Part shown: positions 28,537-32,023 of the stretch, piece by piece | Layout: each line of letters starts with the position of its first letter | Numbering within the stretch: the stretch's first letter is position 1 | Sequence record: PQ724392.1 | Reading direction: 5' to 3' (one strand) | DNA: 64,000 nucleotides | Source: a phage | Made by a program: the position numbers and the translations under genes | Notes under the pieces: model-generated | What the model saw: only the letters and a program-made list of their open reading frames with translations | Told to the model about the DNA's origin: nothing | The model's database searches: none

Positions 28537-28560
28537 ACGTTTCTCTTTAGTTGATTTATA

Positions 28561-28587
28561 AAAAAGCCCCAACCTTTCGGAAGGGGC
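28561..28587 (-). terminator. rho-independent terminator
   Basis: GCCCC..GGGGC hairpin with U-run on minus strand. Confidence 0.5.
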
Positions 28588-28625
28588 TATACCTTGTCGG
28601 GGTTCCACCTGCAAGGCAAGTGTTC

Positions 28626-29009
28626 TTATCCGCGAGCGAATGCCATTGCAGCGCGTTCGTTGGCACGGTCGGTGATGTTCAAGAATTTATCACGAGCGAT
28701 TTCGATTGGAGCGCCAACCCAGTCAGCAGCTCCATTACCCGGAGACTGTTTAGGGCGAACCATATAAGTTGAAACTTTGGAACCGGCTAGTTTGGCACCT
28801 GGCGCCGCGGCATTTTTAACGTCTTTAGCTTTGATGCCAAACCCAGTTACGATACCCCAAGAAACGCCATTAACTGGTTTCTTGAACATAACACGGTCAC
28901 CAATTGAAACACCGGCTTTTTCTGGAGCCACTAAAGAAAATTTACCAGCTTCAGTCAGTACAGATTCGGTGATGGTATTGCGATTTAAAAATTCTGCATA
29001 TGTAAGCAT
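28626..29009 (-). CDS. internal-protein-like protein (degenerate targeting sequence)
   Basis: MLTYAEFLNRN N-terminus; perfect TATAAATA about 32 nt upstream. Confidence 0.5.
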   Translation of the reverse strand: MLTYAEFLNRNTITESVLTEAGKFSLVAPEKAGVSIGDRVMFKKPVNGVSWGIVTGFGIKAKDVKNAAAPGAKLAGSKVSTYMVRPKQSPGNGAADWVGAPIEIARDKFLNITDRANERAAMAFARG

Positions 29010-29040
29010 TTTGTTTTTCCATTATTAGGGTTGTTGTTAA

Positions 29041-29048
29041 TATTTATA
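29041..29048 (-). promoter_or_regulatory. T4-type late promoter TATAAATA
   Basis: exact 8-mer on minus strand upstream of 28626-29009. Confidence 0.45.
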
Positions 29049-29241
29049 TTCCATAGTACCGGATGCACCATCCGCTCGGATTTCTCATACTACCGGGCGC
29101 ACCGCCCGCTCTGGAAAAACTCCGTAAAAGGGTGCGCCGTTTCAGCTGTGGTAGTAAAGAACCAGAACACAGTAAAACTGTGGGAGGAACTATACTTCAG
29201 GGAACTTCAGTCCGACGACTTACCGGTAGCGACCCGGTTTC

Positions 29242-29481
29242 TCATTCAATTGTAATAGCTAATTTGACTTTAACAACCTTATAATTGGAATCAAGGTCAT
29301 TGAATTCCATAAAATTTGTTGCTAATCTGCGAGTCGGGAAACTTAGATATTTATTATGCTCAGGTGGAGCAGTTAATGCAAACCATGGGACTTGTTTATC
29401 ATTTTCATCAAACTCATCAAAGCTATAAACCAGCTCGTTGTTGGTTATATCCATAACTGCATATGATTCACTAATAACCAT
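29242..29481 (-). CDS. hypothetical acidic protein
   Basis: ATG 29481 (GAGGA RBS) chosen so ORF does not overlap tRNA. Confidence 0.45.
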   Translation of the reverse strand: MVISESYAVMDITNNELVYSFDEFDENDKQVPWFALTAPPEHNKYLSFPTRRLATNFMEFNDLDSNYKVVKVKLAITIE

Positions 29482-29496
29482 AATATCCTCGGTAAT

Positions 29497-29573
29497 TGGT
29501 CGGGGTGGTGGGATTCTAACCCACAACCTACGGTTTAGAAGACCGTTGCTCTATACAATTGAGCTACACCCCG
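29497..29573 (-). tRNA. tRNA-Arg (anticodon UCU), CCA encoded
   Basis: hand-folded cloverleaf: 7-bp acceptor, D-stem GCTC/GAGC, anticodon loop CTTCTAA, T-arm GTGGG-TTAGAAT-CCCAC. Confidence 0.8.
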
Positions 29574-29575
29574 GG

Positions 29576-29649
29576 TGGCCCCATCCGGACTTGAACCGGA
29601 AACCTGCCAGTTATGAGCCGGATGCTCTAACCAATTGAGCTACAGGGCC
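29576..29649 (-). tRNA. tRNA with CAU anticodon (Met or Ile-lysidine type)
   Basis: hand-folded cloverleaf: acceptor GGCCCTG/TGGGGCC, T-arm TCCGG-TTCAAGT-CCGGA; abuts tRNA-Arg. Confidence 0.75.
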
Positions 29650-31750: not shown

Positions 31751-32023
31751 CTATTTAAGATAAATTGCATATTTTTTATAACCAGCTGTCTCATGACGGA
31801 GACCCTTGTCATTGGCAAAACGCTCAATGTTATTAATTTGGTTCTGGTCAAGTTCTGAAATGTCAAACGCGAAAAAGTTGCGTTTGTTGCCAATTGTTAT
31901 ATGGTCAGTTAAGTCAATGCTATACAGGTGATTGATATTGTCAATCATAGCTTTGACTGCTTTACTAATTTTTACTTCTTCATTCAGTTGTGACTCGTTG
32001 AAAAATTCATTGAAAGTTTTCAT
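31751..32023 (-). CDS. internal-protein-like capsid-targeted protein
   Basis: MKTFNEFFNES targeting-like N-terminus. Confidence 0.55.
   Translation of the reverse strand: MKTFNEFFNESQLNEEVKISKAVKAMIDNINHLYSIDLTDHITIGNKRNFFAFDISELDQNQINNIERFANDKGLRHETAGYKKYAIYLK

Follow-up and report, generated by a model that had tools for sequence, protein, structure and literature searches.

The RNAs encoded by rnaC and rnaD of bacteriophage T4 were among the first small RNAs to be reported from a virulent phage. Both are reported as expressed late RNAs, and since the 1970s neither has been assigned a function (PMC4933390, PMC3014915, PMC9697503); a discrete, stable rnaD transcript of about 115-120 nucleotides (nt) during infection has been demonstrated for T4 only (PMC9697503; PMC3014915). 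In the T4 reference genome (NC_000866) rnaD occupies 71053..71171, where it is described as 'small, stable RNA; species 2 RNA', with a tRNA-Arg gene just before it and rnaC after it. A second point of reference is provided by T4 genes e, soc, I-TevI and segB, whose ribosome-binding site (RBS) is masked on read-through RNA of the early or middle period but accessible on late RNA (PMC2988022); rnaC and rnaD are not discussed in the SegB paper. We describe here the interval 29010-29241 of a 64,000-nt stretch of phage DNA (sequence record PQ724392.1; the whole stretch is referred to as the window), which an earlier note, made from the sequence by itself, had taken to be one structured non-coding region that might encode an RNA analogous to the T4 small RNAs. 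With a probability that we put at roughly 0.8, the interval is instead a composite of two distinct elements read from the minus strand, namely a copy of rnaD at its 5' end and, at its 3' end, the leader of an orphan late gene, designated here open reading frame (ORF) 127.

The segment 29245..29131 (minus strand) is almost certainly an ortholog of T4 rnaD, the ~119-nt 'species 2' RNA of the T4 tRNA operon. When the interval was used as a blastn query it matched 742 phage records, most of them over the first 45-116 nt only and on the gene strand, and in RB3 and RB5 the annotation beneath the match is rnaD. A search by nhmmer with RB3 rnaD as query gave E=1.2e-12 over 29243..29131. Both annotated termini of T4 rnaD are retained in the window (5' AUGAGAAACC, 3' GGCGCACC); alignment to the NC_000866 gene shows identical 5' AUGAGAAACCGGGUCGCUACCGGUAAGUCGUCGGACUGA and 3' CACAGC-GAAACGGCGCACC, and the ends shared in the rnaD alignment are 5' AUGAGAAACCGGG... 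and 3' ...ACGGCGCACC. These terminal matches set the predicted limits of the RNA at 29245..29131, its 5' end lying 4 nt beyond the boundary of the reported interval. As in T4, a tRNA-Arg gene (29497-29573, minus strand) is found upstream on the same strand. The guess at a T4-like small RNA has therefore proved right in a stronger sense than was intended, since the RNA is a homolog and not merely an analogue, but the features cited in its favour lie mostly outside that RNA: the CGGAT hairpin, one arm of the inverted repeat and the late promoter are all part of the ORF127 leader. The rnaD copy and its predicted parts are as follows.

29131..29245, minus strand: ortholog of rnaD (T4 'species 2' small stable RNA), predicted length 115 nt, from homology and T4-matching termini
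29222..29238, minus strand: P0, a predicted stem of 5 base pairs (bp), ACCGG/CCGGU, with the invariant 7-nt loop GUCGCUA, from folds and alignment
29213..29219, minus strand: predicted 5' strand of P1, GUCGUCG, pairing with 29139..29132 (CGGCG-C-AC, with one bulged C); all columns invariant
29132..29139, minus strand: predicted 3' strand of P1; 29138..29131 doubles as the GGCGCACC arm of an 8-bp inverted repeat
29203..29206, minus strand: predicted 5' strand of P2, (A/U)GUU, pairing with 29147..29144, AGC(U/A), from the alignment
29152..29198, minus strand: predicted apical hairpin P3, hypervariable and of type B in the window, from folds and alignment

Searches of the interval for other kinds of RNA gave consistent results. 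ARAGORN found no tRNA or tmRNA there, and the Rfam tRNA model RF00005 found nothing in 29010-29245 even at E<=10, so that the failure to fold a tRNA cloverleaf, which had been remarked on before, is borne out. No Rfam family was matched in the interval, either at gathering thresholds or at E<=10, and only the two upstream tRNAs were recovered. The Infernal search against Rfam that had been recommended as a check is nevertheless misleading: Rfam contains no model of rnaC or rnaD, and since the annotated rnaD/rnaC locus of RB3 also goes unmatched, the negative is uninformative. A match to rnaC was found nowhere in the window. Pattern scans of IMG/VR with three rnaD motifs returned about 20 true T4-like contigs and no distant homologs; the remaining matches, judged by nhmmer and inspection, occurred by chance in G+C-rich contigs. 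PSD2002 (77% identity) was considered as a distant homolog and rejected, being a type-A rnaD. Within the 64-kb window, antisense targets of rnaD or of the leader amounted only to matches of 11-13 nt, which is chance level.

The structure of rnaD was assessed on an alignment (A2) of 22 distinct sequences drawn from phage records and IMG/VR contigs, and the folds of single sequences concur on a rod shape. Folding with covariation across related phages, another check proposed earlier, supports the scaffold: the proposed structure is 90.1% paired on these sequences, whereas shifting the 3' partners by 1-3 columns leaves 32-46% paired, and its covariation score of 0.214 compares with 0.03-0.09 for the shifted controls and was reached by none of 500 shuffles. 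Twelve pairs change on both sides, and pairs 5/21 and 37/108 covary; the closing pair of P0 is A-U in 18 sequences, G-C in three and G-U in one, while the outer pair of P2 is A-U in nine, U-A in nine and mismatched in four. The internal loop between P1 and P2 (GACUGA/GAAA) is invariant. An alternative register for P2, GAUG/CAUC, fits T4-type sequences only and was rejected in favour of NGUU/AGCN, and kink-turn and T-loop readings of the invariant loops were set aside after inspection by eye, because the consensus did not fit.

At the apex, by comparison, 45-50 nt are occupied by one of three unrelated sequence types, each of which is predicted to form a hairpin in its own sequence: type A in T4, RB3 and VR20; type B in this window, IME341 and L016; and type C in L013, L018 and L044. 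The three types are reshuffled among Tequatrovirus, Dhakavirus and Gaprivervirus without regard to the scaffold alleles on either side, and the several combinations of apex and scaffold allele point to recombination breakpoints inside the 115-nt gene. By analogy with T4, the RNA would be transcribed together with the tRNAs and with ORF80, the reading frame immediately upstream of it; it would then be excised from the polycistronic transcript and accumulate as a rod consisting of P0, the closing helix P1, the invariant internal loop, P2 and a swappable apex. Invariant scaffold loops combined with free exchange of the apex make a fixed antisense RNA the less likely mode of action; more probably, proteins or processing enzymes recognise the conserved scaffold and rnaD works through them. 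Read on the plus strand, P0 (29222-29238) followed by TTTCTCATT has a terminator-like score, and the SA20RB record annotates a 'terminator' at the homologous place; this signal is probably a by-product of the RNA gene.

The remainder of the interval, 29130..29010 (minus strand), belongs to ORF127. Leader and ORF127 are present in exactly the same 16 phage records, and together they form one cassette, inserted precisely between the 3' end of rnaD and the operon terminator. ORF127 has no match in Pfam or PHROGs, a tblastn search of phages yielded nothing beyond the same 16, and among 5.8 billion proteins there is one cluster only, at 98% identity, representing essentially the same protein. All 39 sites that vary among eight genomes are third-codon positions and all the changes are synonymous, which marks ORF127 as a genuine gene on which purifying selection is very strong. 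The leader differs among relatives at only 0-5 positions per 111 nt, against 6-23 differences in the 128 adjoining third-codon positions of ORF127, so it too is under constraint. The elevated G+C content that had been noticed in the interval (0.474 for 29010-29241, against 0.404 for the window) was confirmed, and ORF127 has a G+C content as high. The parts of the cassette are listed here in the order of transcription.

29112..29120, minus strand: 5' arm GUUUUUCCA, a perfect complement of the RBS arm (29021..29013)
29086..29111, minus strand: hairpin unit 1, GAGCGG-GC-GGUGC-GC-CCGGUAGUAUG, with its predicted stem-loop at 29108..29094
29052..29077, minus strand: hairpin unit 2, GAGCGG-AU-GGUGC-AU-CCGGUACUAUG, with its predicted stem-loop at 29074..29060; this is the CGGAT hairpin of the earlier note
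29041..29048, minus strand: T4-type late promoter motif TATAAATA, an exact match, between the two arms and 32 nt upstream of the ORF127 ATG at 29009
29013..29021, minus strand: 3' arm UGGAAAAAC, containing the only Shine-Dalgarno (SD)-like GGA, 8-9 nt upstream of the ORF127 AUG; the arm ends 4 nt before the AUG
28626..29009, minus strand: ORF127, orphan late gene with a late promoter upstream

The leader contains two copies of a 26-nt unit, GAGCGG-RY-GGUGC-RY-CCGGUA-S-UAUG, set 34 nt apart within 29111..29052 (minus strand), where 0.04 matches would be expected. Each unit folds as a hairpin of 5-6 bp, and the two differ from one another by compensating changes in the stem (GC/GC against AU/AU). 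Variation among the eight genomes follows the same pattern: the stem of unit 1 reads GGACG...CGUCC in five of them in place of GGGCG...CGCCC, and in two an A-U pair of unit 2 becomes G-U. The CGGAT-GGTGC-ATCCG hairpin reported previously, found at 29060-29074, is thus one of a pair that exceeds chance. The same cannot be said of the perfect 8-bp inverted repeat reported with it, which does exist (GGCGCACC at 29096-29103 and GGTGCGCC at 29131-29138 on the plus strand, 27 nt apart) but at chance frequency: the same 1.2 kb contains five inverted repeats that are perfect over 8 nt, against a rough chance estimate of about five. Segment 29103..29096 of unit 1 (GGUGCGCC) is complementary to the 3' end of rnaD, and the GGUGC loops of both units are complementary to its terminus, GCACC. 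The hairpins do not resemble intrinsic terminators, being followed by GUAGUAUG and GUACUAUG respectively. When IMG/VR was scanned with the hairpin motif, the other matches were chance occurrences in G+C-rich coding DNA.

Segment 29130..28985 folds, in the minimum free energy (MFE) and centroid structures alike, with a helix between the two arms that encloses both hairpins, together with a helix between the hairpin tails. In the model of a read-through transcript the arm helix has a pair probability of 0.88 and leaves 8% of the RBS arm unpaired; in the modelled late transcript the RBS arm is 54% unpaired, and a similar late-transcript fold is almost structureless (MFE -3.3 kcal/mol). On this modelling we tentatively propose, at somewhat less than even odds, that the leader hides the RBS of ORF127 on read-through transcripts and exposes it on late ones. 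On transcripts reading through from upstream, GUUUUUCCA would pair with UGGAAAAAC and close a three-way structure around the GGUGC hairpins, so hiding the RBS, SD-like GGA included. The late promoter TATAAATA (29048..29041, minus strand), which had been rightly described as perfect and placed at the 3' end of the interval, lies inside that structure, and late transcripts would lack the 5' arm and hence be translatable.

Several observations tell against parts of this composite reading. As regards rnaD, all of its homologs come from close relatives (Tevenvirinae), and the structural model was derived from the same 22 sequences that were used to score it. P1 is invariant and is neither supported nor contradicted by covariation, and at the pair of P2 that covaries a U-U mismatch is seen in four sequences out of 22. 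The fold energy of rnaD is no better than that of shuffled sequences (z=-0.79); genuine T4 rnaD behaves likewise (z=-0.83), and for that reason fold energy was dropped as a criterion. For the leader, the fold z-score of 29130..28985 is only -1.39, and the arm helix is weak, with 9 bp, rich in A and U, spanning some 90 nt. The arms are invariant in eight genomes apart from 1-nt indels in runs of U or A, and so offer no covariation for that helix. In a model of the unprocessed precursor, the 3' end of rnaD pairs with GGUGCGCC (P=0.83) and the arm helix falls to P=0.03; this competing pairing is that of the 8-bp inverted repeat and, for all its chance frequency, may matter, given that both loops are complementary to the rnaD terminus. 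Moreover, sequestration of the RBS leaves the loop sequence GGUGC, shared by the two hairpins, unexplained. Taken as a single structured RNA, the 232 nt fare no better: the fold of the whole interval does not surpass shuffled sequences, and MFE z-scores for the whole interval (on both strands) and for each part, at -0.7 to -1.5, are not significant.

A rival account of the hairpins holds that they serve the 3' processing or stability of rnaD and of the tRNA-operon transcript, as a barrier to nucleases or by docking on GCACC, and have no part in the control of ORF127. The complementarity of both loops to the rnaD terminus, which for unit 1 extends to a perfect 8 bp, speaks for it, as do the dominance of the pairing between the rnaD 3' end and GGUGCGCC in the modelled precursor and the position of the hairpins directly 3' of rnaD in all 16 genomes. 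Set against this, the 8-bp inverted repeat is one of a number expected here by chance, the hairpins strictly co-occur with ORF127, and hundreds of phages carry rnaD without hairpins, followed by rnaC or directly by the terminator. As rnaD is so common without them, the hairpins are not needed for its maturation, and we regard this account as doubtful, though it deserves to be kept in mind. Decidedly improbable, in our estimation, is that the two 26-bp direct repeats act as DNA, as protein-binding or recombination sites connected with insertion of the ORF127 cassette. Their 34-bp period and their location on the 5' border of a 505-bp cassette whose insertion is precise would suit such a role, as would the 8-nt repeat ATGAGAAA, present at the 5' end of rnaD and again between the units. 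The changes within the units, though, preserve complementarity within a strand, including a G-U wobble that is meaningful only in RNA; the cassette is devoid of genes for recombinases or endonucleases; elsewhere in the window and in viral contigs the motif has only chance matches, in G+C-rich coding DNA; and T4 late promoters are not known to need upstream binding sites.

Two further readings of the interval fare worse. The reduced tRNA cluster (two genes, against eight in T4) and the unremarkable fold energy might suggest a tRNA gene in decay, or intergenic DNA left over without a function; the absence of any tRNA-like match by ARAGORN or the tRNA covariance model, even at E<=10, the near-invariance of the rnaD scaffold across 742 records, and the conservation of the leader, far greater than that of neighbouring synonymous sites, make this very improbable. 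It is scarcely credible, finally, that the interval encodes a protein on the plus strand. The earlier note held that no ORF on the gene strand fills the interval, and this is correct, as there is only a 26-aa ORF with a GTG start; two longer frames, of 74 aa (29031-29255) and 73 aa (29063-29284), do exist on the other strand, and coding sequence (CDS) features overlap the region in the records of P8, UPEC01 and pEC-M719. These frames run antisense to all the genes and late promoters of this half of the window, type-B variants alone keep the frame open across rnaD while types A and C interrupt it (27-35 of 42-43 codons), and the sequence is already explained by a known RNA gene on the opposite strand. 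We therefore retain the composite of an rnaD ortholog and a late-gene leader.

The elements that flank rnaD and the cassette are the following.

29574..29649, minus strand: tRNA with anticodon CAT, found by ARAGORN and Rfam
29497..29573, minus strand: tRNA-Arg (TCT), found by ARAGORN and Rfam; directly before rnaD in T4 and RB3
29242..29481, minus strand: ORF80, 79 aa, phrog_33509, function unknown, between tRNA-Arg and rnaD
28558..28624, minus strand: double-hairpin intrinsic terminator module, from homology (E=1.3e-10) and folding (z=-3.2)

The UGA stop codon of ORF80 (29244-29242) overlaps the 5' end of rnaD. Among relatives, what adjoins rnaD on its 5' side is tRNA-Arg (with its CCA end), a different ORF (with a TAA stop) or, as in the window, ORF80 (with its TGA stop); the ending of different ORFs at the same spot indicates that the 5' boundary of rnaD is a recurrent insertion point. 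On the other side, homology ends right after ...GCGCAC(C/A), beyond which come rnaC, the terminator module directly, or the ORF127 cassette. The terminator module follows directly on the ORF127 stop codon, and its homolog follows rnaC in RB3 and T4 and rnaD itself in IME341, so the 505-nt segment 29130..28626, comprising leader and ORF127, occupies the exact slot that rnaC holds in T4, from the 3' end of rnaD to the terminator. A sigma-70-like promoter, TTGTTA-16-TACAAT, was seen at 29276..29249 (minus strand) in the 3' end of ORF80, and its start would fall at about 29243-29241, the 5' end of rnaD; because such sites occur in the region at chance frequency (five, against 4.9 expected), it was not relied on.

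The window derives from a T4-like coliphage (Gaprivervirus), and the 1.1 kb around the locus shows 93-99% identity to Gaprivervirus coliphages (EAWsc9, VR20 and others; Straboviridae, Tevenvirinae). Locally the minus strand is the gene strand, and late promoters have the same orientation. The late motif TATAAATA occurs 16 times in the window against 5.4 expected, each time on the local gene strand; the five copies at 12.6-35.8 kb are all on the minus strand and the 11 from 45.1 kb onward all on the plus strand, which places a switch in the direction of late transcription between about 36 and 45 kb. The tRNA with anticodon CAT (29574-29649) is labelled Met by ARAGORN; it is tRNA-Ile2 in EAWsc9, which is 99% identical, and the corresponding gene in the T4 reference is tRNA-Ile. 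By coordinate mapping, the ORF at 31751-32023 (minus strand) appears to be the small homing-endonuclease gene of EAWsc9, which lies between two internal head protein genes.

The feature is real but largely of a known kind, an unannotated copy of rnaD together with a structured late-gene leader. What the comparison adds for rnaD is that scaffold and two loops stay invariant while the apex swaps among three unrelated hairpins. The slot 3' of rnaD emerges as a hot spot that may hold nothing, rnaC or a late-gene cassette, and the retention of rnaD where rnaC has been lost implies that the two RNAs are separable. There is also a practical consequence: most records leave rnaD unannotated and Rfam lacks it, with the result that annotators sometimes call spurious antisense CDSs over it, which a covariance model built from the present alignment would cure. 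The ORF127 cassette offers a compact candidate case of T4-style temporal control of translation, acting on an orphan gene under strong purifying selection. A bolder idea, which we consider unlikely, is that rnaD is a host-range or anti-defence RNA with a conserved scaffold and an exchangeable apex, and that in this lineage it is further wired to ORF127 through the GGUGC loops. Exchange of the apex independently of the scaffold is the pattern expected if the apex sets target specificity in an arms race, and an evolution experiment published in 2025 reports a convergent single-nucleotide polymorphism within rnaD, shared by every line of a T4-like phage that was adapted to a semi-permissive host (PMC12685909). 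Were the idea correct, the loops, being complementary to the rnaD 3' end, could link translation of ORF127 to the processing of rnaD.

Compared directly with T4 rnaD, the copy in the window shares full-length homology, the same terminal sequences, the same strand, a position downstream of tRNA-Arg and the same predicted scaffold of P0, P1 and P2. It differs in its type-B apex, unrelated in sequence to the type A of T4; in being separated from tRNA-Arg by a 79-aa ORF, where in T4 tRNA-Arg and rnaD are 1 nt apart; in having no rnaC downstream; and in the base after ...CACC, which is C, so that no CCA is encoded where T4 reads CACCA. It is, in short, a new and unannotated member of the family, distinct in its apical hairpin, lacking rnaC as a partner and preceded by an inserted ORF. 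There is some likeness to tRNA and tRNA-like RNAs, in that rnaD lies in a tRNA operon, P0 combines a 5-bp stem with a 7-nt loop that has U at its second position, and the 3' end of T4 rnaD reads CACCA; unlike a tRNA, however, rnaD has no cloverleaf by ARAGORN or the Rfam tRNA model and is predicted to be rod-shaped. The ORF127 cassette fills the same slot as T4 rnaC (species 1 RNA), between the rnaD 3' end and the terminator module, without any sequence similarity to it. The leader, lastly, resembles those of T4 e, soc, I-TevI and segB (PMC2988022) in having a sequence upstream of the late promoter that is complementary to the SD region, with the promoter between the two arms. In ORF127, by contrast, the arms stand about 90 nt apart around two repeated hairpins instead of forming one local hairpin, and the helix predicted from sequence and folding has only 9 bp and is rich in A and U; the regulatory design is one known from T4, of which this leader represents a variant specific to the lineage.

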